DNA from: Dudresnaya verticillata
Taxonomy: Eukaryota
Length of the DNA stretch: 64,000 nucleotides
Reading direction: 5' to 3'
Assembly: GCA_977862235.1 (NCBI GenBank)
Contig: OZ374559.1
Span: 1,922,001-1,986,000, forward strand
The position numbers were made by a program, and so were the translations under genes. How positions within the stretch are numbered: position 1 is the first letter of the stretch; each line of letters starts with the position of its first letter. The notes under the pieces were generated by a model. It had not been told where the DNA came from and ran no database searches. It saw only the letters and a list, made by a program, of their open reading frames with translations. Below, piece by piece: positions 752-58,200 of this stretch.

Positions 752-759
752 TATATAAA
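752..759 (+). promoter_or_regulatory. TATA box of the Cys-rich peptide gene (recurs at +8963 intervals)
   Basis: TATATAAA 115 nt upstream of CACCATG; AATAAA at 1326-1331 after the stop. Confidence 0.6.
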
Positions 760-866: not shown

Positions 867-1241
867 ATGAAGATTACCGCTATGCTCTGCATCTGCCTAG
901 CATTCGCAGCTCTACATGCATCAAATGGACGATTTATTTCCGGTGACCAGCAGACAGAAGCCGTCAAGGTCAAGAAAAATATGCTCTTCACTCAAGGCGA
1001 GAACGCTGCAGAGATCCCAGCCTTTCCTTCTGAGCAACGTGATGGCCGCTTCAATGCCATTACTGTTCGCCAGGGCTATTATAGTACCGCTCCTCGACCA
1101 CCGCCTCCCCCTCCGGCGGCGTGCCCGTGCAGATGCACGACGTATACAAATGCAGTTCAACAGTGCAGAAGGTTCTCTGAACGAAGGTGCTGGCTGCAGC
1201 CACAGAAATGTAGTGGAGATCGGGTCATGTGCTGTTGCTAA
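867..1241 (+). CDS. Secreted Cys-rich prepropeptide, 124 aa (copy 1, Tyr variant)
   Basis: CACCATG start; signal peptide MKITAMLCICLAFAALHASNG; pro-region ending TVR|Q; poly-Pro linker; C-terminal 9-Cys domain; TATA box and polyA signal. Confidence 0.85.
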   Translation: MKITAMLCICLAFAALHASNGRFISGDQQTEAVKVKKNMLFTQGENAAEIPAFPSEQRDGRFNAITVRQGYYSTAPRPPPPPPAACPCRCTTYTNAVQQCRRFSERRCWLQPQKCSGDRVMCCC

Positions 1242-2951
1242 GTTTTTTGTGGTCTTTTTCTCCTTTTAGCTGGACAAGCAATTCACGAATAAGATTGTTT
1301 TAGTTCTCAAATAGCCTCTTATTGCAATAAATATTGCTGTGAAATGCGTTAGAGTTGGACTACTGATTCATGATCGTGTACTTTCTTTGGTACTAGTAGA
1401 TAGCATCCATTAGGGAAGACGTCTCGCTTTGATAAAAGGATACATGCTCCTTTTCTGCAATTGTGGATGGAATGGCCCCCTCTTTTGGATACCAAGTGTA
1501 GTACTTACTGACTCTCTTTGGATTTTCTATCGCGATGTTAAAGAAGGCTAATCATTCAGCTCTTTGAAGAAGGGAATCCTGCAAACCTACTTCATATCTC
1601 CAACTTTTGTCCATACAAATCCTGTCCCAATGTTTCCATCCGCTGACGCTGTTGAAGCGAACGGCGAAGGAAATCGCAGTGATGGGTATTGTGGGATATT
1701 TGGTGAGGTAGATCTGCCTGTCACGACGTCTTTAATCCCAATGATGGTTACAAACGTTGAGTCATGTTACCTTCCGGAAAATAAATACGGTAAGGTAATG
1801 CTCCCTCGGTAAAAGTAATCTATTAGGCTAAGAGAGCATCTATAGACTGCATGGGTTATCATAGATTTATGCTTGGAACTTTGCCGTATATTAATAATGC
1901 GATGCGAAATGAAGGTATTGTTTCACTGACTTGTTTCGGAACGGATGCTTTATGGGATTTTTATGACCATAGCTTCAATCTCGGTCTTAATTGACATCGC
2001 TCTTGAATGTAGGATTTCGTCTTCGTTTGACTCCAGCCGTTCTTCGTTAGCCCGTGTAAGAGCCATTCCGCTCATCTTAATATTTTATATATTCAACGGC
2101 ATACTGAAAATGAGGTCTTACACCTTTGCAAGTGCATGCGATATGGAATTTGTTGCTAATGTTTCTGGCGAAACTCTGCGTTTCTCGACGTCGAACCGTC
2201 GGGAATTAAGCCCAAGTCCACTTCTGGACGAAGCAACAAGGCCACCACTGATCCATTGTATCTTCTGGTAGGCATATATTTGCTTAGACGTGCGGTGCAA
2301 TGCATATACAAACAAAACTGGCTTGTCGTGGGTGCGCCAAATGTAGTTCTTGACGTCTTGTTGCCAGATTATCTTAGTTGGTTCATTAGGACGGAACCAT
2401 AATATTCACTTCCAGACCTTGCTGCAGGTTCATCTAAATATTCCCTCAATCGGTATCCGTGAACGGAATGCATACATTTATCTGCGTGCAATACCAGCAG
2501 TCGAACTATATTAAGAGTGGTTTTGTATTGTTGTTTCAACTTTTCAAATTATAGGACTAGAACCGACGCAGGGACCCAATTACTTCTCAACAGTCTTCAC
2601 AAGATGTTGGCGCATTGTGTTTGTTGCCTTCTAATGCATAAACGTCCCGTTACTACCGTACCTCATTTGTTCATGTGATACCCGCGCACACGTCGATGAA
2701 TATCTCTCCGTTCTGACGATGATTCCCCCGTACCTATGACAGCTTTATTGAATTCACGAAGGGGTGATAATTTGGGGCACACACCGATCTATTTGGACAC
2801 AGCGCTGAAGATGCCGTTTTTGCAGATGAGATGGAAATGTTATGTGGGCACATTTGTGTATCTGCAAGCAACTGGACATCGCGTACGGTATTCCAGGTAT
2901 TTTCTAAATCTTGCTTCTAATAACGATGAGAGCAGAAAAATGCGATTCCGC

Positions 2952-3372
2952 TGAACAACTTGGCTTGAAAAGAGCTGTTCTGTTCACTCATGGCTGAACC
3001 ACTACTATTTTTTCTGTTTATCGTTCAAGCACTGCCGTTCAAGCTATTTGTTTTACTGCTTATCGTTCAAGCCGTCGGCATTTACATACTAGATATGTTG
3101 TTATGATTATTTCTAGCGGTTCACGGCTACGGTCTGATAGAACTAGCTGTTTGTTAGGTTTATGTTACGTCTAGTACAGCAGTTTTATTCACGCTATAGA
3201 CTACATTGTAGCGCAGACTGTGGTCTATCTATACTGACCTTCTCGAGGTGCAGCAGTTTTAGACATCGAACTACAACAACACTTACCAACTTATCAGTAC
3301 CCATTCATCCTGTCCTTCATCACTTTCCCTTTTGTCAGCGTTCCCTTCCTCAGCGCGCCCCTTCCCTTTTCA
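2952..3372. mobile_element. Solo-LTR-like element, copy A (also 11915-12335, 20878-21298, 29841-30261)
   Basis: About 420 bp, TG...CA ends, colinear with but diverged from 5885-6304; internal cgttcaagc repeats; degenerate flanks ttccgc/atcccc. Confidence 0.55.
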
Positions 3373-4534
3373 ATCCCCATGAAGCCATACCGGAATTTTT
3401 CTAAATCGTTGGCGGGAAATAGACCTGCGGGCTGCGGGTAAGGGATCAAATCGCGTGAGTGTCATCATCATCGTCAAAACATTATTGAAGCAAGATGAAC
3501 AGCGGAAACCCCTAATGACTCAGCAGCTGATGACTATTGGAAGGCCTGGACAAACTGGACCTCTACGATTCATTGCGAGGGCTGTGAGCTGGAGAATGCG
3601 GGAAACCAGGGGTGAAACTAACGAATGGTATTGGGAATGGAGTGCTAGGATTTGTTCCCCGGCACGTGGCTAGGAAGGAAGCGAGCTTTTGGAGTGCAGT
3701 ACGGCATTCGGGACCAATGCTGCCGTGGATGTCAAAGCCCGGCGGCTGAAGCGAAATAGAATGTGATGGAAATCTTTACTCAAAGTTAAAGGTGAGCTTA
3801 GGCGGGCAACATAGGCCCGTTTACAAGCGCATCGGCACATCGTGCCAACGGAAGGCCAGTGCTGCGAGGATAGAGGAGGATGGTGGTGGGGGTGGGGGTG
3901 GGGCGGGGAGCAGGAGAATGTGCTGCACAAACGGTGCGATACTTGCGATTCTTCCCCGTTCAGCGACTTGGGCGGCCCCTGCAGGAATTACAGCTGCCTT
4001 GGACACAGCGCGAGCAGTAGAGGGAGCAACAATAGTAAGGTCATATCTAAGGCATGAATCAGAAAAGGCAGGATCATCCAACACCAAGTCGAAACTTCAA
4101 AGATCGTCCTGGAAACGAAAAGACTGCTCTCTTGTTACAGAAAGCCCGATAGACAGGTGTCGGAGATGGGAAAAAAGGGGGTCCCGAATAGAATTGTGAC
4201 GACGAGTTGAGCCTTGGGCACAGGGACATGTGGAAGCATGATACCCGAAACGGCCAAGGGAAACCACGCGACCAGAAACGGAGAGACAAGCAGAACAAGG
4301 GAGATCTGGCGCAACTACAGGTGCGCCCAAACGCAAGTCGAGCATGGTAGCCCAGTAGCCCAGGTGATACAGAGGTGCCTCGGCGTGGATCGGGGAATGC
4401 AGTCAAGGCCGTACGACATTTCAAACTACCACAGGAGAGAAGCCGGGTCCTTTTGACACGATCTGGAATCCAGAGGCTTGTGCCTGTGTGCTTGCTACCT
4501 GTTTTAAAAAAAAGATAGCAAGCACAAAGTGTTG

Positions 4535-5723
4535 GCGGCTCAACAGCAAACTGTTTCTGCGAAGAACTCTGCTTTAGAGAGAGAGTTAAACACAGCAATG
4601 GAGAGCTTGAAAACCAAGCAGATTCGGTGGAATACCATCGAAAACGAGGACAAACAGGAAAATGATGAATTGTGAGACCTGAAAGATACTCGGGCAGAGC
4701 TGGAGTCGGTTAAGCAAGAAAATAACGTAATTAAAGAATGGTTCGACAAAGCCAAAGGTGAAGCGATGAAGCATAAGACCGTCTCCCCACCACAACCAGC
4801 AGATCCAGGTTTTCCGCGTATGTATGAAACCCTCTTTCATCGTTGGAAACTGACAAAGCTAATCGGACAGGGTGGCTTTGGAGCAGTATAAAAAGGAAGT
4901 GGACACTTTGAATCGATCAGCAAACATCGCGATGAAGGTGCAACTCATCCAGGACACCGCAGGCTTTGAACTAGGATATGAGCGCAACATATACCGACAG
5001 TTTGCCCATCGTCATGGTCAGGAATCGGAAGATCAGTTCATGCCGCGAGCCCGGGGGTACAGCCGGATCCCAGGCAAGTATGAGGTACTTTCCATTGATC
5101 TTCTCGGCCCTTCAGTACAAGACTACTGGCAACGCTTCTATTGCACCTTTACCCTCACCGGTATTTTGACGTTTGGAATCAGAGCGCTGACCTGTCTCGA
5201 GAGGTTCCACGACAACGGTTACGTACATCGGGACATGAAAGCAGGAAAATGAAACTTTTTGACAGACCTGCATGGCCAAGGTAAGCTGTACTTGGCTGAC
5301 TTCGGGATGTCTGTGGAATATGAAAGCTGGGAGAACCCACCGCAACAAGATGAACGAGAAGTGTTTGGAACGCTTCTCTATGCTTCAAAGACAGCACACC
5401 AGCGCAAGCCCCAGTCTCGGGCAAGTGATCTTGAGTCACTTGGGTACGTTCTCTTTGAGATGATTAAAGGTGAACTTCCTTGGAGCCATGTTGCTCGCAA
5501 CTGCCACGGTGGGCGCTGGGAAGCTTGCCTTACCTTTAAGAAGATAGGAATCAATTGCCATGAATCTCCGTGGCTCGTCAAATACTTTGACTGCATCGAG
5601 AAGCTGACATAGACATTCTCACAGCATCCTGACTATGACGGACTGCGAGAGATTCTTAAGAAGTGTTTGGGACAAAGGGAAGGAGAGGTTGATTGGGTGC
5701 GATATGCCGAGGACCATGTGTGA
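4535..5723 (+). pseudogene. Coiled-coil + casein kinase 1-superfamily kinase pseudogene (copy 1; 5' limit approximate)
   Basis: Motifs GQGGFGAV, IAMK, LLGPS, HRDMK, DFG, GTLLYAS, DLESLGY, PDY. Stops at 4673, about 4888 (plus frameshift), 5250 and 5610. Colinear with intact 55882-57726. Confidence 0.9.
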
Positions 5724-5884: not shown

Positions 5885-6304
5885 TGAATAACTTGGCTTG
5901 AAGAGCTGTTCACTCATGGCTGAACCGCTACTATTTGTTTTCTGTTTACGTTCAAGCACTACCGCTCAAGCTATTTGATTTACTGTTTATCGTTCAAGCA
6001 GTTGAGCAGTTACGTACTAGATATGTTGTTACGATTATTCCAGCAGTCCACGACTACGGTCTGATAGAACTAGCTGTTTTGTTACGTTTATGTTACGTCT
6101 AGCACTGCAGTTGAATTCATGCTACAGACCATGTTTTAGGGCAAACTGTGGTCTATTTATACTGACCTTCTCGTGGTCTGCAACAGGCATAGCTATCGAA
6201 CCACAACAATACTTACCAACTTATCAGCACCCATTCATCCCTTTCTGCATCTCGTTCCGTTTGGTCAGCATTCCCTTCCTCAATGTGCCCCTTTTCCTTC
6301 ATCA
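5885..6304. mobile_element. Solo-LTR-like element, copy B, with 6-bp target-site duplication (also 14848-15267, 23811-24230)
   Basis: TGA...TCA termini flanked by AAAACT at 5879-5884 and 6305-6310; absent from the paralogous flank near 32838. Confidence 0.7.
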
Positions 6305-7837: not shown

Positions 7838-9829
7838 GTACATATGTATACTACATATATAAGCAAAGCATGTCTTTGTGACGCTACGCGCACATGCTTC
7901 GACATTGAGCGTATACGAAAATGTGAATCAGGTACGGGCTATCGACCAAAAGCAAAGGCGTCCGTGTCTAGAATCGGAAGTGGGGGCTATTAATCGAAAT
8001 CCGGTTTCAAACAGGCGTAGCAGTAAATCTAAAGCTGCTCTCTTGGGTGAAAGACAGACAGGAATAAGTTTGTATGACTTTCATTAGTATCACAACACAC
8101 AAACGGTACTCGAGGAGTCTGGATACAGGAGTCATTAAAACCGCGTTTGAAACGCGGGCTGTTCTGTGTTGCAACATGCTGAAATACTGTCATCCTTTGA
8201 CAAAAGTTAGTACCGCGAGCATGCTCATGCTGTGTCTGCATGTGAAGAGTTTAGTATTCGTTTTAACTTGCGCTCTGCTCCGTAGGATGACAGGCCTGCG
8301 TATGCAGCACGGCGCTGTCTGGAAACTGCTTCACCAAAAACGTTGCAATTCAATTGACAAGAAGTCCAGAGAAACTACGTATTTTCGTCGGTGCACCTCG
8401 TCATCTCCTTTCAAGCATCGTTCGAAAGCCTCAACGCTGCGATCACAGAGCTTGAACAGATTCAAGCTAATGTTTCAAATGGCAGCTCTGCACCGTGATG
8501 TTCTCCATTATAGAACAGGCACCCCCCATGGAGGTGTTCAGATAGAGGATAGCAATGAATGAGATCATGACTGATGCACATAATATCCAGGACGCATAAT
8601 CGCTACTCTCCTTCCGAGGGTTTTAAGAGTCCTCGGCGACAATCGACGTGTATTTCAATATGTAATGGTACGTGTCGTGGATGCTTTCTTCTGCATCTCC
8701 GAAGGCTCTATGATAAATAAACCTTCACAGTACCATCCAGATCCGTCGCAGAAGCACTAAATACAAAAGAAAAGTTCCCCACTCTCGTTCTGCACAATAC
8801 AAAGAAATAAACTTTCATATTGCAGAAGTGTTCTCAAAGGAGTTCAACGTAGAGTGTTATCTTGTTTTCTCTTCCCACGGGTTTTTAACAGATGCTTCAT
8901 TATTTATTATCTCGAGTATGGCATAAAGCCCATGGTTTCTCTTCGAGCACAGAGCCCGTGAGGCCGCAACACTACGGCATGTTGGACTTATTTGCAACAG
9001 AATTCCAATATGGAAGTTGTAGTGCTTTGATGGTTCTCGTGTCACCTTTTCCAGGCCCATTTGCAGTCTCTCCCGTAGATCTGCTAGTGTCAAACTGCCA
9101 ACCCCACCTTCTTACCCGGGATGAACTTCCCCCAGCCAAAAACATCAGCTGGGCTCTCCTTCAAGGATCTCTTGCTAGCACCATTTTGCAGCGCTCCGGC
9201 ATTCGCCATCTTTTTTCTCGCCCTGCAAGAGTGTTCAAGAGAGCCCGTGCCGTTTTATTTCTCCATCATTCCTCTTCTCCGGAAAAGTTTCAAAGTACCG
9301 AAAATGCTTCATACGCATTCCCAGTAACCAGGAATAGCTCTATGACTTCATAACTACGTATCCTTCCTGAGGGGAGAAGGGAAAAGGATCTAATAACCAA
9401 GCGCTAATAATTGCAGTCGGCATACTTGAATGTTTAGCCCGCGAAAGCAGTTTACTGCATCTTTGTATTGCAACAAAGACAAACAGCAAACAACCCTCTC
9501 ACCTCCCAGGCCCATCTACGAAATAGAATTGAAGAGAAAAGTAATCCCTGCTAGTCAAGTATTATTGCTGTCCCATTTGGTTCCTGTTTGACGGCAACCA
9601 GGACCAGGTCAACCAGACGTGCTGCGCATGAATATACCAGAGGGCTAGGAGCTTCAGCGGCCATGAAATCAGAATCTCCAACAAATCGCCTCTCCCTATC
9701 CTGGTCCTGAACACTATATAAAGCAACGACGCATCCCAGTTTGTGGGATTCATTCATCAGACACGCAACACTCAGTTGCACCTGAATACAACATCAATTC
9801 AGAAAAGCTTTCCAAGTCCACCCCACACC

Positions 9830-10204
9830 ATGAAGATTACCGCTATGCTCTGCATCTGCCTAGCATTCGCAGCTCTACATGCATCAAATGGACGATTTAT
9901 TTCCGGTGACCAGCAGACAGAAGCCGTCAAGGTCAAGAAAAATATGCTCTTCACTCAAGGCGAGAACGCTGCAGAGATCCCAGCCTTTCCTTCTGAGCAA
10001 CGTGATGGCCGCTTCAATGCCATTACTGTTCGCCAGGGCTATTATAGTACCGCTCCTCGACCACCGCCTCCCCCTCCGGCGGCGTGCCCGTGCAGATGCA
10101 CGACGCATACAAATGCAGTTCAACAGTGCAGAAGGTTCTCTGAACGAAGGTGCTGGCTGCAGCCACAGAAATGTAGTGGAGATCGGGTCATGTGCTGTTG
10201 CTAA
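9830..10204 (+). CDS. Secreted Cys-rich prepropeptide (copy 2, His variant)
   Basis: Same as 867-1241 except TAT>CAT at 10106. Confidence 0.85.
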   Translation: MKITAMLCICLAFAALHASNGRFISGDQQTEAVKVKKNMLFTQGENAAEIPAFPSEQRDGRFNAITVRQGYYSTAPRPPPPPPAACPCRCTTHTNAVQQCRRFSERRCWLQPQKCSGDRVMCCC

Positions 10205-13200: not shown

Positions 13201-13497
13201 ATGATACCCGAAACGGCCAAGGGAAACCACGCGACCAGAAACGGAGAGACAAGCAGAACAAGGGAGATCTGGCGCAACTACAGGTGCGCCCAAACGCAAG
13301 TCGAGCATGGTAGCCCAGTAGCCCAGGTGATACAGAGGTGCCTCGGCGTGGATCGGGGAATGCAGTCAAGGCCGTACGACATTTCAAACTACCACAGGAG
13401 AGAAGCCGGGTCCTTTTGACACGATCTGGAATCCAGAGGCTTGTGCCTGTGTGCTTGCTACCTGTTTTAAAAAAAAGATAGCAAGCACAAAGTGTTG

Positions 13498-14686
13498 GCG
13501 GCTCAACAGCAAACTGTTTCTGCGAAGAACTCTGCTTTAGAGAGAGAGTTAAACACAGCAATGGAGAGCTTGAAAACCAAGCAGATTCGGTGGAATACCA
13601 TCGAAAACGAGGACAAACAGGAAAATGATGAATTGTGAGACCTGAAAGATACTCGGGCAGAGCTGGAGTCGGTTAAGCAAGAAAATAACGTAATTAAAGA
13701 ATGGTTCGACAAAGCCAAAGGTGAAGCGATGAAGCATAAGACCGTCTCCCCACCACAACCAGCAGATCCAGGTTTTCCGCGTATGTATGAAACCCTCTTT
13801 CATCGTTGGAAACTGACAAAGCTAATCGGACAGGGTGGCTTTGGAGCAGTATAAAAAGGAAGTGGACACTTTGAATCGATCAGCAAACATCGCGATGAAG
13901 GTGCAACTCATCCAGGACACCGCAGGCTTTGAACTAGGATATGAGCGCAACATATACCGACAGTTTGCCCATCGTCATGGTCAGGAATCGGAAGATCAGT
14001 TCATGCCGCGAGCCCGGGGGTACAGCCGGATCCCAGGCAAGTATGAGGTACTTTCCATTGATCTTCTCGGCCCTTCAGTACAAGACTACTGGCAACGCTT
14101 CTATTGCACCTTTACCCTCACCGGTATTTTGACGTTTGGAATCAGAGCGCTGACCTGTCTCGAGAGGTTCCACGACAACGGTTACGTACATCGGGACATG
14201 AAAGCAGGAAAATGAAACTTTTTGACAGACCTGCATGGCCAAGGTAAGCTGTACTTGGCTGACTTCGGGATGTCTGTGGAATATGAAAGCTGGGAGAACC
14301 CACCGCAACAAGATGAACGAGAAGTGTTTGGAACGCTTCTCTATGCTTCAAAGACAGCACACCAGCGCAAGCCCCAGTCTCGGGCAAGTGATCTTGAGTC
14401 ACTTGGGTACGTTCTCTTTGAGATGATTAAAGGTGAACTTCCTTGGAGCCATGTTGCTCGCAACTGCCACGGTGGGCGCTGGGAAGCTTGCCTTACCTTT
14501 AAGAAGATAGGAATCAATTGCCATGAATCTCCGTGGCTCGTCAAATACTTTGACTGCATCGAGAAGCTGACATAGACATTCTCACAGCATCCTGACTATG
14601 ACGGACTGCGAGAGATTCTTAAGAAGTGTTTGGGACAAAGGGAAGGAGAGGTTGATTGGGTGCGATATGCCGAGGACCATGTGTGA
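13498..14686 (+). pseudogene. CK1-like kinase pseudogene (copy 2)
   Basis: Same motifs and lesions as copy 1. Confidence 0.9.
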
Positions 14687-18792: not shown

Positions 18793-19167
18793 ATGAAGAT
18801 TACCGCTATGCTCTGCATCTGCCTAGCATTCGCAGCTCTACATGCATCAAATGGACGATTTATTTCCGGTGACCAGCAGACAGAAGCCGTCAAGGTCAAG
18901 AAAAATATGCTCTTCACTCAAGGCGAGAACGCTGCAGAGATCCCAGCCTTTCCTTCTGAGCAACGTGATGGCCGCTTCAATGCCATTACTGTTCGCCAGG
19001 GCTATTATAGTACCGCTCCTCGACCACCGCCTCCCCCTCCGGCGGCGTGCCCGTGCAGATGCACGACGCATACAAATGCAGTTCAACAGTGCAGAAGGTT
19101 CTCTGAACGAAGGTGCTGGCTGCAGCCACAGAAATGTAGTGGAGATCGGGTCATGTGCTGTTGCTAA
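18793..19167 (+). CDS. Secreted Cys-rich prepropeptide (copy 3)
   Basis: Identical translation to copy 2. Confidence 0.85.
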   Translation: MKITAMLCICLAFAALHASNGRFISGDQQTEAVKVKKNMLFTQGENAAEIPAFPSEQRDGRFNAITVRQGYYSTAPRPPPPPPAACPCRCTTHTNAVQQCRRFSERRCWLQPQKCSGDRVMCCC

Positions 19168-22100: not shown

Positions 22101-22460
22101 AAGGGGGTCCCGAATAGAATTGTGACGACGAGTTGAGCCTTGGGCACAGGGACATGTGGAAGCATGATACCCGAAACGGCCAAGGGAAACCACGCGACCA
22201 GAAACGGAGAGACAAGCAGAACAAGGGAGATCTGGCGCAACTACAGGTGCGCCCAAACGCAAGTCGAGCATGGTAGCCCAGTAGCCCAGGTGATACAGAG
22301 GTGCCTCGGCGTGGATCGGGGAATGCAGTCAAGGCCGTACGACATTTCAAACTACCACAGGAGAGAAGCCGGGTCCTTTTGACACGATCTGGAATCCAGA
22401 GGCTTGTGCCTGTGTGCTTGCTACCTGTTTTAAAAAAAAGATAGCAAGCACAAAGTGTTG

Positions 22461-23649
22461 GCGGCTCAACAGCAAACTGTTTCTGCGAAGAACTCTGCTT
22501 TAGAGAGAGAGTTAAACACAGCAATGGAGAGCTTGAAAACCAAGCAGATTCGGTGGAATACCATCGAAAACGAGGACAAACAGGAAAATGATGAATTGTG
22601 AGACCTGAAAGATACTCGGGCAGAGCTGGAGTCGGTTAAGCAAGAAAATAACGTAATTAAAGAATGGTTCGACAAAGCCAAAGGTGAAGCGATGAAGCAT
22701 AAGACCGTCTCCCCACCACAACCAGCAGATCCAGGTTTTCCGCGTATGTATGAAACCCTCTTTCATCGTTGGAAACTGACAAAGCTAATCGGACAGGGTG
22801 GCTTTGGAGCAGTATAAAAAGGAAGTGGACACTTTGAATCGATCAGCAAACATCGCGATGAAGGTGCAACTCATCCAGGACACCGCAGGCTTTGAACTAG
22901 GATATGAGCGCAACATATACCGACAGTTTGCCCATCGTCATGGTCAGGAATCGGAAGATCAGTTCATGCCGCGAGCCCGGGGGTACAGCCGGATCCCAGG
23001 CAAGTATGAGGTACTTTCCATTGATCTTCTCGGCCCTTCAGTACAAGACTACTGGCAACGCTTCTATTGCACCTTTACCCTCACCGGTATTTTGACGTTT
23101 GGAATCAGAGCGCTGACCTGTCTCGAGAGGTTCCACGACAACGGTTACGTACATCGGGACATGAAAGCAGGAAAATGAAACTTTTTGACAGACCTGCATG
23201 GCCAAGGTAAGCTGTACTTGGCTGACTTCGGGATGTCTGTGGAATATGAAAGCTGGGAGAACCCACCGCAACAAGATGAACGAGAAGTGTTTGGAACGCT
23301 TCTCTATGCTTCAAAGACAGCACACCAGCGCAAGCCCCAGTCTCGGGCAAGTGATCTTGAGTCACTTGGGTACGTTCTCTTTGAGATGATTAAAGGTGAA
23401 CTTCCTTGGAGCCATGTTGCTCGCAACTGCCACGGTGGGCGCTGGGAAGCTTGCCTTACCTTTAAGAAGATAGGAATCAATTGCCATGAATCTCCGTGGC
23501 TCGTCAAATACTTTGACTGCATCGAGAAGCTGACATAGACATTCTCACAGCATCCTGACTATGACGGACTGCGAGAGATTCTTAAGAAGTGTTTGGGACA
23601 AAGGGAAGGAGAGGTTGATTGGGTGCGATATGCCGAGGACCATGTGTGA
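22461..23649 (+). pseudogene. CK1-like kinase pseudogene (copy 3)
   Basis: Same motifs and lesions as copy 1. Confidence 0.9.
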
Positions 23650-27755: not shown

Positions 27756-28130
27756 ATGAAGATTACCGCTATGCTCTGCATCTGCCTAGCATTCGCAGCT
27801 CTACATGCATCAAATGGACGATTTATTTCCGGTGACCAGCAGACAGAAGCCGTCAAGGTCAAGAAAAATATGCTCTTCACTCAAGGCGAGAACGCTGCAG
27901 AGATCCCAGCCTTTCCTTCTGAGCAACGTGATGGCCGCTTCAATGCCATTACTGTTCGCCAGGGCTATTATAGTACCGCTCCTCGACCACCGCCTCCCCC
28001 TCCGGCGGCGTGCCCGTGCAGATGCACGACGCATACAAATGCAGTTCAACAGTGCAGAAGGTTCTCTGAACGAAGGTGCTGGCTGCAGCCACAGAAATGT
28101 AGTGGAGATCGGGTCATGTGCTGTTGCTAA
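27756..28130 (+). CDS. Secreted Cys-rich prepropeptide (copy 4)
   Basis: Identical translation to copy 2. Confidence 0.85.
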   Translation: MKITAMLCICLAFAALHASNGRFISGDQQTEAVKVKKNMLFTQGENAAEIPAFPSEQRDGRFNAITVRQGYYSTAPRPPPPPPAACPCRCTTHTNAVQQCRRFSERRCWLQPQKCSGDRVMCCC

Positions 28131-31100: not shown

Positions 31101-31423
31101 CCTTGGGCACAGGGACATGTGGAAGCATGATACCCGAAACGGCCAAGGGAAACCACGCGACCAGAAACGGAGAGACAAGCAGAACAAGGGAGATCTGGCG
31201 CAACTACAGGTGCGCCCAAACGCAAGTCGAGCATGGTAGCCCAGTAGCCCAGGTGATACAGAGGTGCCTCGGCGTGGATCGGGGAATGCAGTCAAGGCCG
31301 TACGACATTTCAAACTACCACAGGAGAGAAGCCGGGTCCTTTTGACACGATCTGGAATCCAGAGGCTTGTGCCTGTGTGCTTGCTACCTGTTTTAAAAAA
31401 AAGATAGCAAGCACAAAGTGTTG

Positions 31424-32645
31424 GCGGCTCAACAGCAAACTGTTTCTGCGAAGAACTCTGCTTTAGAGAGAGAGTTAAACACAGCAATGGAGAGCTTGAA
31501 AACCAAGCAGATTCGGTGGAATACCATCGAAAACGAGGACAAACAGGAAAATGATGAATTGTGAGACCTGAAAGATACTCGGGCAGAGCTGGAGTCGGTT
31601 AAGCAAGAAAATAACGTAATTAAAGAATGGTTCGACAAAGCCAAAGGTGAAGCGATGAAGCATAAGACCGTCTCCCCACCACAACCAGCAGATCCAGGTT
31701 TTCCGCGTATGTATGAAACCCTCTTTCATCGTTGGAAACTGACAAAGCTAATCGGACAGGGTGGCTTTGGAGCAGTATAAAAAGGAAGTGGACACTTTGA
31801 ATCGATCAGCAAACATCGCGATGAAGGTGCAACTCATCCAGGACACCGCAGGCTTTGAACTAGGATATGAGCGCAACATATACCGACAGTTTGCCCATCG
31901 TCATGGTCAGGAATCGGAAGATCAGTTCATGCCGCGAGCCCGGGGGTACAGCCGGATCCCAGGCAAGTATGAGGTACTTTCCATTGATCTTCTCGGCCCT
32001 TCAGTACAAGACTACTGGCAACGCTTCTATTGCACCTTTACCCTCACCGGTATTTTGACGTTTGGAATCAGAGCGCTGACCTGTCTCGAGAGGTTCCACG
32101 ACAACGGTTACGTACATCGGGACATGAAAGCAGGAAAATGAAACTTTTTGACAGACCTGCATGGCCAAGGTAAGCTGTACTTGGCTGACTTCGGGATGTC
32201 TGTGGAATATGAAAGCTGGGAGAACCCACCGCAACAAGATGAACGAGAAGTGTTTGGAACGCTTCTCTATGCTTCAAAGACAGCACACCAGCGCAAGCCC
32301 CAGTCTCGGGCAAGTGATCTTGAGTCACTTGGGTACGTTCTCTTTGAGATGATTAAAGGTGAACTTCCTTGGAGCCATGTTGCTCGCAACTGCCACGGTG
32401 GGCGCTGGGAAGCTTGCCTTACCTTTAAGAAGATAGGAATCAATTGCCATGAATCTCCGTGGCTCGTCAAATACTTTGACTGCATCGAGAAGCTGACATA
32501 GACATTCTCACAGCATCCTGACTATGACGGACTGCGAGAGATTCTTAAGAAGTGTTTGGGACAAAGGGAAGGAGAGGTTGATTGGGTGCGATATGCAGAG
32601 GAGCACACGAGAGTATTGTATCTGCAAAATCGAAATAATAAATGA
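31424..32645 (+). pseudogene. CK1-like kinase pseudogene (copy 4, different 3' tail)
   Basis: Same lesions; diverges at 32597, giving tail YAEEHTRVLYLQNRNNK* instead of YAEDHV*. Confidence 0.88.
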
Positions 32646-44732: not shown

Positions 44733-47700
44733 ATGCCGGTCTGCTCCACCCGCCCCGTTCTGGGCGACAAGGCCCCGATCCGCCAGATGCAGGCCTTTCT
44801 CAACAAGGCCGGCCCCTACTCCATCCCGGAGGACGGCGTCTTCGGCCCCAACACCGACAACACCGTCAAGGACTGGCAGAAGAAGAACGGCCTGATCGTC
44901 GACGGCAAGGTCGCCAACCAGACCTGGCCCACGCTGTGCGACGCGGCATGCAAGCTGCGCCCCACCCTGGCCCACGCCTCGCCCAACAAGAAATCCGTCG
45001 CAGAGATGCAGACCCTGCTCAACAAGGCCGGCGGGTACTCCATGCCGGCCGACGGAGACTTTGGCAACAACACCGTCGCCAAGGTCAAGGACTGGCAGCG
45101 CCGCAATGGCCTTGCCGTCGACGGCGTCGTCGCCGCGCAAACCTGGCCCACGCTTTGTGAGTGCAGGGCTTGCAAGGTCCGTCCGAGACTGGTCCGCGGT
45201 TCCAACGACAAGGTTGCCGTCCTGCAGATGCAGGCTCTGCTCAACAACATTGGCGGCTACCGCATTCCTGAGGATGGCGATTTCGGTGGAAACACTCAAA
45301 ACACCGTCAAGGACTGGCAGGCCAAGAACAAGCTCATCGTCGATGGAGTCGTCGCCGGTCAGACCTGGCCTACCCTGTGTGACACCGTTTGCAAAACCAA
45401 GCCCAGGCTGTCTAAAGGGTACGATGCCTACGGTCAGGTCCGCCAGACCCAAGTCTTGCTCAATGCTGCAGGAGGCTACACTCTTTCGTTGGATGGCGAT
45501 TTTGGCAACCAGACAGACAGAACCGTCAGGGACTGGCAGACCAAGAATGGGCTCATCGTGGACGGAATTGTCGGAAACCAGACGTGGCCTACTCTTTGTG
45601 ACCCGATCTGCAAGTCGCGCCCTTCTTTGTCGAAAGGATCACCCAACAAGCGTGGAGTCAAGGAGATGCAGACCCTATTGAACGACAAGGGTGGCTACAA
45701 CATGCCAGTAGACGGAGACTTTGGCAACAACACTGACGGCAAAGTCAGGGATTGGCAGAAGAGGAATGGCCTTGCCGTTGACGGTGTTGTTGGCGCTCAA
45801 ACTTGGCCGACCCTGTGCGATGAATCTCAAGCTTGCAAGACCCGTCCGAGACTGCAAAAAGGATCTGCTGACAAGAGAGCCGTTCTCGAGATGCAAGCAG
45901 CGCTGAACAAGGCTGGTGGCTACAGCATTCCCGAGGACGGTTTGTTCGGAGGCAATACTGAGAATACCGTCAAGGACTGGCAGAACAAGAATGGTCGCGT
46001 AGTGGATGGCATTGTTGGAGGGCAGACATGGCCCACTCTGTGCGACTGCGTTTGTGAGGTCCGTCCGGTTTTGGGAGACAAGGCTCTCATTAAGGAGATG
46101 CAGGCCTTGTTGAACAAGGCTGGTGGGTATCATATCCCCGAGGATGGTATCTATGGAAGCAACACAGAGAAGACCGTCAAGGACTGGCAAACGAAGAGTG
46201 GCATTTTCGCAAGTGGCATCGTTGGGCCTGCCACATGGGATACTCTTTGCACCGACAGTCTCATTACAGATGCTGTCAAGGGGCTAGACTCTGAGATGGA
46301 TGCGCTAAAGCCCAAGCTGGAGCGCTTCAGGAATCTCGACTTCTTTATTCTCGACAACTCGATCCGCGAGTGCACTGTTGGCCAGCTCCGTAGCCATACC
46401 ATTGAGAACAAGAAGAAGATATACGCCGAGAGCAAAAAGTGTCACATGCATAGCATGATTGTCGCTTCATTTGCGCAACTGCACCGCGTTGACGACGAGT
46501 TTTGCCAGTGGCTCAAGGACTCTGGCGAGGATTTCTCCAAGCTCTTCTCCTTTTCCGAGGTGACTGAGGGCGTCAAGGACGGGCGGTTTATTACCGACGA
46601 GGTCCCAATCTCGCTTAAAAAGAACAAGACGTTCGGCCTGTACAATACTTTCTTTGAGGTCGACCTAGCAGACAGCAGAGTCGAGTGGGGAACCAAATGG
46701 TCCGTGCATGATATGTGCAAGTTGATAGAGAAATGGATGGACTGGGTGTTCGACAATATTCACAAGGACGCACGCATCCTCATCAACTTTCGAGATTTGC
46801 CCGCTGTCATGGTCCAGGCCCCGGAACGTATCCTAGCAGTCGTCGAGTTTCTCTCCAAAATGCCAGAGGATCGGCGTATGTTTGCCCTTGCGTATGAGGA
46901 CCCTATGGGTGAGAGCCTGCCGGCAGAGATGGCGGCCTGGACGAGGGCAATTCGCAACGTTATGACCGCTTCTGGTTGGAATGGGCGTTTGTTGAACCAC
47001 ATTCATGAAAAGTGGGAGTTCCAAACCTCAGCAACAATGGAGTGTTTGGCCGCAGGAGGTGACGGTGTTTGGGCAGGTATGTGCGTAGAAGGCGCAGCTA
47101 TGGGGCACGCTAGTTCGACGGTAACGCTGCTGAATTTGGTGCGTCTCGGCAATCAGAAGGTACTCAAGACGTATAATTGCACAGGGTTCCGCAATTCTGC
47201 TATCGAGGTGACCAAGTTGACGACGACAAAGAAGCCACACCCCAAACAATGTGTGTATGGAGAACGTGCGCTAGATCTGGTGTTCGGATTCCTCGGAGTT
47301 GGTGACTTCAACCTCGGAGATTTCTTCGGGGAACGCACGGAAAATAGAATGACGACTCTGGCTACACCGCAAATGATCGTCGATCGGTTGACGTTCCTGT
47401 TCGGTGCCGACCCGCAGTTTACGCTCGAAATGGGGGAGAAGATGAAGGTGAAGATGTTGGATGATCTCAACTCGACGCCTCCCAGGAAGGAGGAATATCA
47501 GAGCGCCATGGGTTTGGCAGTGTTACTCGATCGAACCGGCGGGAAGTTAACTGGGAAGATGAGTGACGCAATTGCAGCTGTGGAGGATCATCAGGAGAGT
47601 CACAAGCGAATTATTGCCGAGATTCGAGAGTTGTGGGACGAGTGGGATATGAAGGAGACGCACAAGAAGGATGACGCGTTGCAGTTTGACTCGTTCTACA

Positions 47701-47963
47701 ATGCATTCTTGTCGCCATACTTTGGGTGCTACCGCTGCGCAGATACGAAGCAGGCTATGAGTGCAATCGACATGGATGATGATCACTGCGTAGACTGGAA
47801 TGAGTTCCTAGTGTACATCAAGTGGGCGCTCGCGGAGAAGCCCAACGTTGCCTATTCGGATGAGGTGCTTGAGATGGCGATTCAGGAGGGATTGATCCCC
47901 GCGATGCGCGACGAGAAGATCAAGAATCAGGAGTCTCACAGCGGGTTCCGCCACCTGCCGTAG
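44733..47963 (+). CDS. 7x peptidoglycan-binding domain (PGBD-like) + DRE-TIM metallolyase-like barrel + EF-hand, 1076 aa
   Basis: CACCATG start; seven roughly 72-aa repeats (MQxLLN...DGxFGxNT...VKDWQ...GLxVDGxVxxQTW); FILDNSIRE, HIH and GAAMG; EF loop DMDDDHCVDWNE. Confidence 0.92.
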   Translation: MPVCSTRPVLGDKAPIRQMQAFLNKAGPYSIPEDGVFGPNTDNTVKDWQKKNGLIVDGKVANQTWPTLCDAACKLRPTLAHASPNKKSVAEMQTLLNKAGGYSMPADGDFGNNTVAKVKDWQRRNGLAVDGVVAAQTWPTLCECRACKVRPRLVRGSNDKVAVLQMQALLNNIGGYRIPEDGDFGGNTQNTVKDWQAKNKLIVDGVVAGQTWPTLCDTVCKTKPRLSKGYDAYGQVRQTQVLLNAAGGYTLSLDGDFGNQTDRTVRDWQTKNGLIVDGIVGNQTWPTLCDPICKSRPSLSKGSPNKRGVKEMQTLLNDKGGYNMPVDGDFGNNTDGKVRDWQKRNGLAVDGVVGAQTWPTLCDESQACKTRPRLQKGSADKRAVLEMQAALNKAGGYSIPEDGLFGGNTENTVKDWQNKNGRVVDGIVGGQTWPTLCDCVCEVRPVLGDKALIKEMQALLNKAGGYHIPEDGIYGSNTEKTVKDWQTKSGIFASGIVGPATWDTLCTDSLITDAVKGLDSEMDALKPKLERFRNLDFFILDNSIRECTVGQLRSHTIENKKKIYAESKKCHMHSMIVASFAQLHRVDDEFCQWLKDSGEDFSKLFSFSEVTEGVKDGRFITDEVPISLKKNKTFGLYNTFFEVDLADSRVEWGTKWSVHDMCKLIEKWMDWVFDNIHKDARILINFRDLPAVMVQAPERILAVVEFLSKMPEDRRMFALAYEDPMGESLPAEMAAWTRAIRNVMTASGWNGRLLNHIHEKWEFQTSATMECLAAGGDGVWAGMCVEGAAMGHASSTVTLLNLVRLGNQKVLKTYNCTGFRNSAIEVTKLTTTKKPHPKQCVYGERALDLVFGFLGVGDFNLGDFFGERTENRMTTLATPQMIVDRLTFLFGADPQFTLEMGEKMKVKMLDDLNSTPPRKEEYQSAMGLAVLLDRTGGKLTGKMSDAIAAVEDHQESHKRIIAEIRELWDEWDMKETHKKDDALQFDSFYNAFLSPYFGCYRCADTKQAMSAIDMDDDHCVDWNEFLVYIKWALAEKPNVAYSDEVLEMAIQEGLIPAMRDEKIKNQESHSGFRHLP

Positions 47964-48919: not shown

Positions 48920-51900
48920 GCTGTGATTGGGGCGGTTGTGTGAGGCGCTGTTCGAGTGGAGGGGCGCTATCGCAATTGGGTGCGGTGCGGGTGTGATTGC
49001 CGAGATATTTTCTTTCGGCGTTTGGGGCACTTGTGGCTATCGGAGAATTTCTTTGAGGCATTATCGACATTGAAGGAGAACATAATGTTGATGCTAACCT
49101 CCGCAATAAACAATGTATCGAACAGATCCGGCCTCATCTTGATGTACACAATTTAAACAATTCACCGACTCAGAGTCTGAGGAGTCACACAGCTGTGGAT
49201 ATATCGAGTACTGTATAGTCTCACAATTAGCTCCGCAGCAGCTACTCATAAAGGGTTTAGATAAATCTGTAACGTGGTTTATTACCAGTTGTTTCTTATG
49301 AATATGTTCTCCGCAGCTTGGTTTCGGGTTTTTGTTGACAGTATATCAGCGCTCCCATCAAGAAGACATAACGTGTTCTCCAGATGCAAATCGTTGCAGA
49401 GACCGACTACTCAAGTACTTTCGATATCTTACAAAATGGCTACACTCTACGCTGCAAACTATCAGACATCTCACGATACACACAGTATAGCGTGACACAA
49501 GGGGTGTTCCAAGTGCACCATTTTTGACCGCAGGCCCAGCACGAAATAACATGCTGGTGATACGGAGATGCGATATTGTCACAAGCACACTTCCGGTCAG
49601 ACCGTGCCAAGCCGAGCCCAAGCCCCTGCATCTACCATCTGTAGACTACTCCCCAGCTTCGCACGTGCACACACCCGCGAGACTCGATCCCACGACCTCC
49701 ATGGTGGACCAAGCAAAAAGAAACCATTTAGCTATTGCCGCTTCAGTGTGGCTTTGCTTGGTGTAGCGCTGTGATGCTCCCTACTTAAGATCCTATTTCA
49801 GTAGGTATCTACACATCCACGTAAGTACTAATGTTACTAATGTATTGCACCATTCACACCACTGCATTCAAACACGAATGCCCTTTCTCGATATTCTCTG
49901 CTGCAACCCCAGTCCGATATTTATTAACATCTACTGTTGCTTCTCACACCAATTGACACTCAAACTACCGATACTGCACCCAATCCACATCATTACTTGA
50001 TCCGCTCACTTGCCTCTCCAGAAGCCTTCTCAAGTACTCATAGTCTGGACGAGTTGAAAACGTCAACCCCTGGAGATATTCAAAGTAAGAATTCATCCAA
50101 GGCAACTTGACGCGAATACGATGCAATGACCTCTGCTTCAACACAACAACTTGATTCAGTACTTCCGGATCAACACTGGCCGAATACTGGTCCCAAGCAA
50201 GCTCCCCGCAAACAAGTTCCCACAACACATACCCAAGAGACTCCAGATCGCTTGCTCGCGACTGGTGTTCCATTCTGTGCGCTGCCATGGATGCATAACG
50301 GGGTGTGGTCACGATGGACCCCACCTTTCCGGCGGGCGGATTATCCCAAGACGCATATCTTCGGGACAACCCGAAATCTGACAAATACACCCGCCCTGAG
50401 CCTCTGGAGTCGGTCAGAAAGTTTCCGGGCTTCACATCGCGATGCACAAACCCATTGTTGTGAAACCTCTCCAGGGCCGTCAGCGCTCTGACTGCAAACC
50501 GTACCACACCGGTGAGCGTAAAACGAAAATGGAACTTCTGAAACTGCTCTTCCACCGAAGGACCCAAACAATTCATCACGATTACCCCATACTCGTTGTT
50601 GAGCTGCAGGGCTTGTTCTGGCGTGGGCATGAAAGCATCGTTGGGATCTTGGTTTGGAAATGCACTGTACACCTGCGTTTCAGTCCGGAAGCCATGCTCC
50701 CTTCCTTCGACGAGGAGTCCTATCTTCAAAGCCACAATGTGGTTGTCGTCGTATGTATCTTCTGCCTGATACACTGCTCCATACCCACCCTCTCCAAGCA
50801 ATTTCGTCACCCGCCAGCGGTTAACGATGATGAAACTGGGGGAAGGGAAACGCTTATCCCTTGGTCGTTTCGGTGGCGAGGGCAAGCGACCCTGAAGCTC
50901 TTGTAGTTCGGCTTTGGTCTTTTCGTACCAGTGTACAATGATGTCTCGCTGGTCTGACAGCAATCTGACCTCGCCTTGGAGGTTTATGATGGTATGGTCC
51001 CCCTCGGTCTGGCTGGACTGCAGAGCATTGACCCTGTTCCTCAGCAAAGTTGTATCAGAATAGAATCGCTCTGTGATACCGTCTCGCTCGGTTTTCAGAG
51101 CCGATACCATGTTCTCCATGGTTTGAACCGTTAGACTATGCTCGAGGAAGTTGTTAGTCAGGGACACATTTTTGTCTTCGAGGGAATGACTTTCCTCCAA
51201 AAGTTCCTCATAGAGGAGAGACAAATCCGCATTTCTCCTGCTCAACTCAGTGTTCTGAGCTTCGAGCTTAGAAATGCGATCTTCAGCGTGTTTTTTCTCC
51301 CCCAACAAGTAGCTTATCTCATGGGATTGGCCATGGAGGCCTTTTTCCTGCCTGGGAACCTCATCACTCAGAGTAATGACCTCGGATATCGTAGCAGTCT
51401 GCCCATGGATCAGCGCCTTATTCTTCTCATTAGACTCGTTGAGCTTCTCCTTGAGTTCACTGCATGTATTTGGCAGGTTTGCTCCATGGCCGCCCAAACC
51501 GTGCGCGCTCTCTCGACCTACTCCTGAGGCACCTGATGACCTCGGTATTTCTAACGTCAAGTGCCTTCGAGGCATCCCACTCCTTCGTCAGTTGGGACAC
51601 AATGCCCTTCAAAGCATTGATCTCACCGCGAAGCCTGGTGTTGGTAGATTTCTCGAATGTGACTGACTCCTTGGTAACAAGTGCTTCAGACTCCTTCTGA
51701 ATGATCTTGTTCTTAAGAGAGGTGGTTTCTTCAGCCTGACTCTTGCAAATATCGACGTACGTCGGACGTCGACGCCAGGTAGGGAGCTGGATGCGCATGG
51801 TAATGACTTTTACAGGCTGTTAGAATTGCTGATTTATGCTGTGTTTTTAGTGGCAGATGTTGTACTTGCGTGAGAGTGAGAGCACTTCTGGGGGTAGGAG

Positions 51901-55221: not shown

Positions 55222-58200
55222 GTGACCTACAGCAGAAAATTTACACTATCCACCGGGAATACCAGTGCCTTGGGCCAACATGGACTCACATGCCCGAGTT
55301 GGAAACGTCCAATGAATCGCTCGTTAGAGGCATATGCGATTTTGATATGCGTTGAGGAGGGCCAACTGTACAAGCCGGGAAGGAATTGGAAACATCCAAT
55401 GAATCGCTCTCGAGGGCTATCTTCTTACAGTTGGGTTAAGAGCGCCAATAATTCCTAGCCGGGAAAATGGAGAAGTACAGCCATATTAAGACGCATGCAA
55501 GCTGCTGGGTGTTGCGTTCGCGGCAGTGTGATGATAACTCCACTCTGGACATATGCACTGTACAGCACGTCATTGTACACCTAAAAATTCGGACATCGAT
55601 GCCGAAATGTTCGGTGTTGTGTACGGTGTACGTTTTTGCCGGCTCGACGAAGTGCCGGGCTACATCACTGGCGCGAAAACGGGATCTACTTGAGCCACAA
55701 CTTCCCCCAGGGAACAGGCAGCCCACCCTTACCTACCCGCACTGTTTTCCATCGATACCTTTCCACCTCTTCCCCCGGACTCCTACCCCCAGAAGTGCTC
55801 TCACTCTCACGCAAGTACAACATCTGCCACTAAAAGCACAGCATAAAGCAGCAATCGTAACAGCCTGTAAAAGCCATTACCATGCGCATCCAACTCCCTA
55901 CCTGGCGTCGACGTCCGACGTACGTCGATGTTTGCAAGAGTCAGGCTGAAGAAATCACCTCTCTTAAGAACAAGATCATTCAGAAGGAGTCTGAAGCACT
56001 TGTTACCAAGGAGTCAGTCACAGTCGAGAAATCTACCAACACCAAGCTTCGCGGTGAGATCAATGCTTTGACGGGACTTGTGTCCCAACTGACGAAGGAG
56101 CGGGATGCCTCGAAGGCACTTGACGTTAGAAATACCGAGGTCATCAGGTGCCTCAGGAGTAGGTCGAGCCGAGCAGAGAGGAGCGCGCACGGTTTGGGTG
56201 GCCATGTAGCAAGTCTGTCAAATACATGCCGTGAACTCAAGGAGAAGCTCAACAAATCTGACAAAAAGAATAAGGTGCTGAGCCATGAGAAGACTGCTAC
56301 GATATCCGAGGTCATTACGCTGAGTGATGAGGTTGCCAGGCTGGAAAAAGGCCTCCATGGCCAATCCCATGAGATAAGCTACTTGTTGGGGGAGAAAAAA
56401 CACGCTGAAGATCGCATTTCTAAGCTCGAAGCTCAGAACACTGAGTTGAGCAGGAGAAATGCGGATTTGTCTCTCCTCTATGAGGAACTTTTGGAGGAAA
56501 GTCATTCCCTCGAAGACAAAAATGTGTCCCTGACTAACAACTTCCTCGAGCATAGTCTAACGGTTCAAACCATGGAGAACATGGTATCGGCTCTGAAAAC
56601 CGAGCGAGACGGTATCACAGAGCGATTCTATTCTGATACAACTTTGCTGAGGAACAGGGTCAATGCTCTGCAGTCCAGCCAGACCGAGGGGGACCATACC
56701 ATCATAAACCTCCAAGGCGAGGTCAGATTGCTGTCAGACCAGCGAGACATCATTGTACACTGGTACGAAAAGACCAAAGCCGAACTACAAGAGCTTCAGG
56801 GTCGCTTGCCCTCGCCACCGAAACGACCAAGGGATAAGCGTTTCCCTTCCCCCAGTTTCATCATCGTTAACCGCTGGCGGGTGACGAAACTGCTTGGAGA
56901 GGGTGGGTATGGAGCAGTGTATCAGGCAGAAGATACATACGACAACAACCGCATTGTGGCTTTGAAGATAGAACTCCTCGTCGAAGGAAGGGAACATGGC
57001 TTCCGGACTGAAATGCAGGTGTACAGTGCATTTCCAAACCAAGATCCCAACGATGCTTTCATGCCCACGCCAGAACAAGCCCTGCAGCTCAACAATGAGT
57101 ATGGGGTAATCGTGATGAATTGTTTGGGTCCTTCGGTGGAAGAGCAGTTTCAGAAGTTCCATTTTCGTTTTACGCTCACCGGTGTGGTACGGTTTGCAGT
57201 CAGAGCGCTGACGGCCCTGGAGAGGTTTCACAACAATGGGTTTGTGCATCGCGATGTGAAGCCCGGAAACTTTCTGACCGACTCCAGAGGCTCAGGGCGG
57301 GTGTATTTGTCAGATTTCGGGTTGTCCCGAAGATATGCGTCTTGGGATAATCCGCCCGCCGGAAAGGTGGGGTCCATCGTGACCACACCCCGTTATGCAT
57401 CCATGGCAGCGCACAGAATGGAACACCAGTCGCGAGCAAGCGATCTGGAGTCTCTTGGGTATGTGTTGTGGGAACTTGTTTGCGGGGAGCTTGCTTGGGA
57501 CCAGTATTCGGCCAGTGTTGATCCGGAAGTACTGAATCAAGTTGTTGTGTTGAAGCAGAGGTCATTGCATCGTATTCGCGTCAAGTTGCCTTGGATGAAT
57601 TCTTACTTTGAATATCTCCAGGGGTTGACGTTTTCAACTCGTCCAGACTATGAGTACTTGAGAAGGCTTCTGGAGAGGCAAGTGAGCGGATCAAGTAATG
57701 ATGTGGATTGGGTGCAGTATCGGTAGTTTGAGTGTCAATTGGTGTGAGAAGCAACAGTAGATGTTAATAAATATCGGACTGGGGTTGCAGCAGAGAATAT
57801 CGAGAAAGGGCATTCGTGTTTGAATGCAGTGGTGTGAATGGTGCAATACATTAGTAACATTAGTACTTACGTGGATGTGTAGATACCTACTGAAATAGGA
57901 TCTTAAGTAGGGAGCATCACAGCGCTACACCAAGCAAAGCCACACTGAAGCGGCAATAGCTAAATGGTTTCTTTTTGCTTGGTCCACCATGGAGGTCGTG
58001 GGATCGAGTCTCGCGGGTGTGTGCACGTGCGAAGCTGGGGAGTAGTCTACAGATGGTAGATGCAGGGGCTTGGGCTCGGCTTGGCACGGTCTGAACGGAA
58101 GTGTGCTTGTGACAATATCACATTTCCTTATCAATGAGGACAGCTGTGTCTGCAGCAGAAACACTAGCATGTTATTTCGTGCTGGACCTGCGGTCAAAAA

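Follow-up and report, generated by a model that had tools for sequence, protein, structure and literature searches.

The open reading frame (ORF) at positions 867-1241 (+) of the window, which is the whole stretch of 64,000 nucleotides of Dudresnaya verticillata DNA analysed here, raises the question of what kind of protein ends in a short domain with nine cysteines closed by CCC, and of whether it is a gene at all. An earlier note, made from the letters of the sequence, had described it as an amplified prepropeptide of defensin or toxin type. The gene is intronless and has 124 codons plus the stop (ATG at 867-869, stop at 1239-1241), without any upstream in-frame ATG before the preceding stop codon. 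It is the Tyr93 form of the gene, referred to here as copy 1, and it was aligned end to end with a complete transcript ORF, P0046. The 124-aa product begins with the hydrophobic N-terminus MKITAMLCICLAFAAL (in a longer extract of this start, MKITAMLCICLAFAALHASNG), contains AITVRQGYYSTAPRPPPPPPAA in its middle part and has CPCRCTTYTNAVQQCRRFSERRCWLQPQKCSGDRVMCCC as its C-terminal end.

Four parts were distinguished in the protein, and they agree with the signal-like start, the proline spacer and the cationic Cys domain that the earlier note had read in this ORF. The predicted signal peptide (867-923, +, approximately residues 1-19) consists, according to a hydrophobicity scan, of Met-Lys and the uncharged run of 14 residues ITAMLCICLAFAAL. 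It is followed by a variable N region (924-1097, +, residues 20-77), by a run of six prolines (1098-1115, +, P78-P83), among which P78-81 and P83 are invariant in the family described below, and by the nine-Cys cationic C-terminal domain (1122-1238, +, C86-C124), which is the conserved module of the family and was modelled with AlphaFold. The spacing that had been given for this domain, CxCxC-x9-C-x7-C-x6-C-x6-CCC-stop with nine Cys, proved exact. These last 39 residues include nine Cys, six Arg, one Lys, one Glu and one Asp, giving a net charge of +5. With regard to possible expression signals, a candidate TATA box, TATATAAA, is located at 752-759 (+), 115 nt upstream of the ATG, and precedes every copy of the gene. 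This octamer was found 8 times in the window against 0.85 expected, at two distinct sites in each repeat unit and nowhere outside the array. A candidate polyadenylation signal, AATAAA, lies at 1326-1331 (+), 85 nt after the stop and likewise in each copy; this is a weak indication, as the motif is common by chance.

The length of the ORF was unremarkable, given that 0.54 ATG-initiated ORFs of at least 124 aa are expected per shuffled repeat unit. None of 300 dinucleotide shuffles of the unit yielded an ORF of at least 60 aa with at least nine Cys in its last 40 residues, the maximum being seven. Within the window, stop-free stretches of 40 residues with at least eight Cys were restricted to the four gene copies and to three low-complexity sites in a GC-rich block at 38-41 kb. 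Judging from the sequence, with a Cys cluster that is unusual and homologues elsewhere, the ORF at 867-1241 is not a chance ORF.

Homologues were obtained by an exhaustive HMMER search against 1.84 billion representative sequences (E <= 0.001). The best of them, P0046 (122 aa, E 2.7e-13), aligned over its residues 10-122 with residues 12-124 of copy 1 at 40% identity, while P0047 (154 aa, E 2.2e-07), P0048 (178 aa, E 7.9e-07) and P0049 (150 aa, E 3.2e-05) matched in the C-terminal domain at about 50% identity. A fifth relative, P0051, came from a profile search with the alignment; a further entry, P0050, is a longer ORF call of the P0049 protein. A word-based protein search with the single sequence gave 56 candidates, none of them at E <= 0.01. 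The label of P0046 is that of a transcript from Agarophyton chilense whose ORF is complete, and that of P0051 names a Trinity transcript from Gracilaria changii; as far as these labels go, the family is transcribed in at least two red algae of the Gracilariales. These are the only named relatives, and they agree with the red-algal origin that the earlier note had guessed. That only five relatives were found says little about the true spread of the family, since the proteins of the source genome are absent from the searched collection. No related DNA was confirmed in metagenome contigs (600 pattern matches) or in viral contigs (608 pattern matches). In the ESM Atlas, the best score for the whole protein was 0.76, for a 'nacre protein' within the noise, and residues 76-124 gave no usable match.

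The layout of the window protein is retained in all five relatives. Each of the six proteins starts with Met, a basic residue and a hydrophobic run of 13-17 residues in the hydrophobicity scan and, when measured from this signal Met, they are 103-124 aa long, the longer database ORFs being due to upstream start codons. The N region that follows (approximately 35-55 residues) is only loosely alignable. The Pro run consists of 6-10 prolines, broken up in P0051, and is separated from the Cys domain by two or three residues in all six proteins; the residue preceding it is R, Y, F, T or F across the six, and never Ser. The domain itself comprises 37-40 residues with the pattern CxCxC-x9-C-x5..7-C-x6..7-C-x6-CCC, and the protein ends on CCC. 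The nine Cys, Pro87, Thr91, Ala96, Trp109 and most of the Pro run were invariant across all rows of the alignment. The odd number of Cys, which the earlier note had remarked upon, is therefore conserved in the family, and the nine Cys of the domain form a self-contained odd set in every member. Three subtypes can be told apart by loop length, namely that of the window (x7, x6), the CWLIGPPKC type (x7, x7) and that of P0049 (x5, x6). The net charge of the domain is +5, +4, +4, +5, +3 and +1 across the six proteins, the last value belonging to P0049, which is rich in His (four added His).

Conservation was unevenly distributed along these proteins. In all 15 pairwise comparisons conservation was higher in the Cys domain than in the N region, and this still held for 12 of the 15 once the Cys were excluded. 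Among P0046, P0051, P0047 and P0048, non-Cys residues of the domain were 71-94% identical versus 18-60% for the N region, and the window protein shared 46-51% identity with its relatives in the Cys domain. All five relatives carry exactly two extra Cys in the N region and the window protein has neither of them. This joint absence would be the pattern expected of a disulfide pair. On the sequence comparisons, we assign the ORF to a family of small proteins of red algae that is conserved, has not been described before and whose members are predicted to be secreted.

The gene is placed in a tandem array of 8963-bp units that occupies positions 1-32596 and was delimited by a base-by-base comparison at lag 8963. 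The array includes 3.64 units within the window, its left end being cut by the window edge. Besides copy 1, it holds copy 2 (9830-10204, +), copy 3 (18793-19167, +) and copy 4 (27756-28130, +), all three in the His93 form. The unit of copy 1 differs from those of copies 2 and 3 at two of 8963 bases; the units of copies 2 and 3 are identical to each other, and that of copy 4 is the same until the end of the array. One of the two differences, T/C at 1143, is the sole coding difference among the four gene copies. It confirms the Tyr/His polymorphism that had been placed in the mature domain, and it changes codon 93 (1143-1145, +) from TAT (Tyr) in copy 1 to CAT (His) in copies 2-4. Tyr is present at this position in all five relatives, so that His occurs only in copies 2-4 of the window. 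The second difference, at 6184, falls in sequence without a recognised gene. The start codon, the TATA-like box and the stop are retained in every copy. A search for divergent extra copies in the window, by tblastn and with an HMM of the domain over 1585 six-frame segments, recovered only these four.

Each unit also contains a kinase pseudogene (4457-5705, +, and again at 13420-14668, 22383-23631 and 31346-32594), a decayed paralogue of the coiled-coil kinase genes of the window. Four in-frame stops and a frame change interrupt it, and its kinase domain is 41% identical to that of the two intact kinase genes of the window. The end of the array, at 32596, falls in the final codons of its fourth pseudogene. 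Given that every 8963-bp unit carries a dead kinase as well, the amplification is segmental, affecting 9 kb, and is not specific to the peptide. The description of the gene as amplified thus holds in respect of its four copies in an array, and does not hold as an amplification of the peptide in particular. A transposon origin of the unit was also considered and was discarded, as no transposon domain was found: Pfam scans of one unit covered 20 stop-to-stop ORFs of at least 90 aa, leaving aside the peptide ORF and the three that overlap it, and matched the kinase fragment only. Rfam revealed no RNA family within the window. The kinase pseudogene is flanked in each unit by two direct repeats (2980-3363 and 5906-6293) that are spaced 2.9 kb apart, measure about 385 bp and share 82-94% identity. 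Two more putative ATG-ORFs are present per unit, at 8074-8562 (+, 162 aa) and 8892-9353 (+, 153 aa), without any Pfam match.

Several features were recorded outside the array. The two intact kinase genes are inverted with respect to each other (49965-51575, -, and 55882-57726, +) and encode proteins, approximately 96% identical, with a coiled-coil N-terminal half and a protein-kinase domain (Ser/Thr kinase), whose best database relatives are just 28-35% identical. An ORF of 1076 aa at 44733-47963 (+) contains seven PG_binding_1 (peptidoglycan-binding) repeats (E 5.7e-104), which is unusual for the eukaryote-like context. Between 38000 and 44500 the GC content is 58-79%, compared with about 45-50% elsewhere, with simple repeats of GCG/GGGC type and long overlapping ORFs on both strands that have no Pfam match. 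Finally, an ORF of 877 aa at 60488-63121 (+) contains RING and IBR domains (RBR-type E3 ligase) and an internal 57-bp tandem repeat of 3.8 copies (61260-61478).

The fold of the protein was modelled with AlphaFold on one sequence and on seven. In the single-sequence model, residues 1-85 are without structure (pLDDT about 50), and the domain contains a strand (88-92), a helix (93-102) and two further strands (109-114 and 119-123) with pLDDT of 70-86. The model of the 56-residue C-terminal part, built with the seven-row alignment, has a mean pLDDT of 72 and shows the same helix and the last two strands. The domain is accordingly predicted to be a small compact strand-helix-strand-strand fold. 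Foldseek, which the earlier note had proposed as a check on the Cys domain, gave nothing in the PDB at E <= 0.001 with either model. A wide VIA-align comparison with 48161 representative chains gave 19 at Z >= 2 and none at Z >= 5 (best Z 3.0), the nearest compact matches being designed strand-helix-strand-strand miniproteins (Z 2.6-2.7). No solved antimicrobial peptide was among the structural matches of Foldseek or VIA. Pfam assigned no family to the window protein at E <= 10, and for the six relative entries and the domain in its His form it gave only a sub-threshold match driven by polyproline. Sequence and profile searches of the PDB returned only chance or polyproline rows (E 0.8-6). On these sequence searches and models, the scaffold matches no known family, no sequence of a solved structure and no solved fold, in agreement with the earlier statement that it was not recognised.

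It must be considered, then, how far the family resembles classes that are defined by their Cys pattern. CS-alpha/beta defensins have six or eight Cys, and in them a CxxxC in the helix is bridged to a CxC in the last strand. The family resembles these proteins, of plants and invertebrates, in being small, cationic and secreted with several disulfides (as predicted here), and in its predicted strand-helix-strand-strand order. It is unlike them in that the predicted helix (93-103) holds only C100 in both models. A C-x3-C spacing occurs solely between the outer Cys of CxCxC, which precede the helix in an extended segment that contains Pro, next to Pro87. Rice defensin 6lcq was reached by Foldseek at E 5.1 with a probability of 0.04, and the VIA listing contained no solved defensin. 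Membership in the defensins was consequently rejected: no Pfam defensin profile matched, and the predicted structure has no CxxxC in its helix. The term 'defensin/toxin-like' is, on the sequence and the models, a likeness of class and not of membership. Metallothioneins are cytosolic proteins without a signal peptide, with few or no aromatics and with metal-thiolate clusters. The six proteins were not assigned to them, given the signal-like start in all six, the conserved Tyr, Trp and Phe, and the lack of a Pfam match.

Two classes of plant wall proteins were compared in the same way. The domain of hybrid proline-rich proteins (HyPRPs) is a helical 8-Cys motif, C..C..CC..CxC..C..C, of about 80-90 residues. 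The family differs from it in its domain of 37-40 residues, in its CxCxC...CCC framework and in having one Pro run instead of repeats, and membership in the HyPRPs or other 8-Cys-motif proteins was rejected on the Cys pattern and the lack of a Pfam match. Extensin-type hydroxyproline-rich glycoproteins share with the family contiguous prolines in a secreted protein of the plant-plastid lineage, and SPPP motifs are reported back to the Rhodophyta (PMC3797821). The family is unlike extensins in having one run and not many, in the absence of Ser before Pro in six of six proteins, and in being defined by its Cys domain; membership was rejected, the repeated Ser-Pro3-5 being absent in the six proteins. 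A match to a known structural wall-protein family had been named in the earlier note as evidence against a defence peptide, and no Pfam wall-protein family was found.

The closest published parallel, in both architecture and pattern of evolution, is that of the penaeidins, as a likeness of architecture and not of descent. According to PMC11678341, penaeidins combine a Pro-rich part with a conserved Cys-rich domain, which opens with CxC and has a disulfide-stabilised helix; gene duplication drives their diversification, and change occurs mainly in the N-terminal Pro-rich part. The same source describes six Cys and three bridges and a restriction to penaeid shrimps. Penaeidins, and also stylicins, resemble the family in the order of a signal, an extended Pro-rich part and, at the C-terminus, a Cys domain opening with CxC and containing a helix (predicted here); penaeidins also share a conserved Cys part, a variable N-terminal part and multiplication by duplication. 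The family is unlike penaeidins in its nine Cys, its terminal CCC, its one short and pure Pro run and its extra N region of about 55 residues. It was not placed among them, given the nine versus six Cys, the red-algal origin of its named relatives and the lack of any sequence or Pfam match. Size (103-124 aa) and an invariant nine-Cys framework across homologues do fit the class of secreted proteins that are small and rich in cysteine and, on its sequence features, the family is a predicted member of this class; its framework is unrecognised and its spread lineage-restricted.

The comparison with the relatives also bears on how the protein would be processed. Cleavage at TVR|Q, with the exposed Gln forming an N-terminal pyroglutamate, had been suggested in the earlier note and finds no counterpart in the family, in which the relatives read R-S-C-G, R-S-C-F, R-T-G-R-L-P-C or T-R-I-P-C at this place. 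No conserved dibasic processing site was found before the Cys domain in the family alignment. In the relatives, the Cys after that Arg has a partner only in the N region, so that cleavage there, if the two are paired, would leave the N region tethered. We think, from these sequences, that the N region is not removed at TVR|Q and, by analogy, the mature protein would be expected to keep it, as penaeidins keep their Pro-rich part.

The explanation that we prefer, with a probability of roughly one in three (about 0.35), is that of a secreted protein with a C-terminal, four-disulfide, cationic module of defence type carried on a stiff polyproline stalk. The nine-Cys domain would act outside the cell as a disulfide-stapled module of antimicrobial type, held by four intramolecular disulfides and leaving a single Cys over, probably within the terminal CCC, which may be free or bridging. 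The Pro run would form a stiff stalk between the fast-evolving N region and the constrained domain, and the positive charge (+3 to +5 in five of the six distinct proteins) may steer the domain towards microbial envelopes or other anionic surfaces. The recent segmental amplification of 9 kb would have raised the gene dose. The points that we counted for this explanation are the five relatives, the two transcripts, the invariant columns, the signal-like starts, the charge, the conservation of the domain, the AlphaFold models, the parallel with penaeidins and the TATATAAA box; the P0049 subtype, with only +1 and a high His content, was counted against it, as were the structural matches, which included no solved antimicrobial peptide, and the basis of the models in one and in seven sequences.

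Much of this evidence bears on other explanations as well. A wall-anchored protein would likewise be compatible with the conserved unpaired Cys and with the invariant Pro run, which adjoins the domain and in six of six proteins lies 2-3 residues ahead of the first Cys. The stalk and the cationic, aromatic-bearing Cys domain may in that case bind the anionic sulfated-galactan (agar) matrix, or the protein may be cross-linked through the spare Cys, in the manner of plant hybrid proline-rich or lectin-type wall proteins. We regard such a wall or matrix protein as possible though doubtful. The conserved aromatics Tyr93 and Trp109 on a cationic domain, the strong conservation of surface residues among four relatives and the agar-producing Gracilariales to which the named members belong are consistent with it, as is the comparable layout of the HyPRPs, putative wall proteins in which a signal and a Pro-rich part are followed by a Cys motif at the C-terminus (PMC2216038). 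The single short Pro run without Ser-Pro(n) repeats, however, provides no extensin-type motif, the Cys pattern is not the 8-Cys motif, Pfam matched no wall-protein family, and Hyp-glycosylation in red algae is uncertain, the Rhodophyte GT77 members belonging to a clade of unknown activity according to PMC3797821. The identity of 71-94% in non-Cys domain residues among P0046, P0051, P0047 and P0048, compared with 18-60% in the N region, would suit a specific conserved partner at least as well as a peptide under an arms race. An extracellular signalling ligand, for instance in cell-cell or gamete recognition, could thus be proposed, acting on a specific receptor as a covalent homodimer formed through the ninth Cys. 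The odd Cys count, whose conservation counts equally for a wall protein, and the small size with a signal-like start would agree with a ligand. It is nevertheless unlikely, since no receptor or partner is known, the domain has no conserved dibasic processing site ahead of it, and a gene dose raised by amplification would be less typical of a ligand.

A different matter is whether the copies of the window are active at all. They could be inert, that is, recently amplified and either unexpressed or decaying while the family is functional elsewhere, or their number could be inflated by the assembly. With His at Tyr93 in three of four copies, where five of five relatives have Tyr, and with a unit shared with a dead kinase that has a frame change and four in-frame stops, drift of these copies is conceivable; both N-region Cys of the relatives are missing as well, and the copies are so nearly identical that the intactness of their ORFs is uninformative on selection since duplication. 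On the other hand, apart from Tyr93 no invariant residue, the nine Cys included, has been lost at a domain identity of only 46-51%, which speaks for purifying selection over a long period until the amplification. Each copy has preserved its start codon, its TATA-like box and its stop, and the joint loss of the N-region Cys fits a disulfide pair and is unlike random decay. Inert copies are therefore, in our judgement, quite improbable. The nine Cys within 37-40 residues, clustered as CxC and CC, and the four His added in the P0049 subtype would be compatible with a secreted, metallothionein-like protein that binds metal through the thiolates of CxCxC and CCC. This we hold to be very improbable: the signal-like N-terminus implies an oxidising route, in which disulfides form, the conserved aromatics and the confidently predicted helix and strands are untypical of metallothioneins, and no Pfam metallothionein family was matched.

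A stronger form of the defence explanation would be that the family is the first one of gene-encoded host-defence peptides in red seaweeds, with a new disulfide scaffold, CxCxC...CCC, on a polyproline stalk, forming a covalent dimer through the ninth Cys and being amplified here. We consider this whole set of statements somewhat unlikely. In the literature searched, no paper on gene-encoded secreted peptides of red algae was found. Among papers outside paywalls, a search aimed at proteins of red algae or Gracilaria that are cysteine-rich, secreted, defensin-like or part of the wall gave none that deals with this family or with a cysteine-rich peptide from any red alga. A link with sex chromosomes was dropped, as PMC12502185 makes no mention of cysteine, secreted, signal peptide or tandem.

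The family bears on no long-standing open question. Its domain of 37-40 residues should be suited to chemical synthesis or recombinant expression. The Gracilariales concerned are farmed for agar. A conserved Cys scaffold that is lineage-restricted, with transcripts in two of these algae, would make the family a concrete candidate for a role in the surface defence or in the wall biology of seaweeds.
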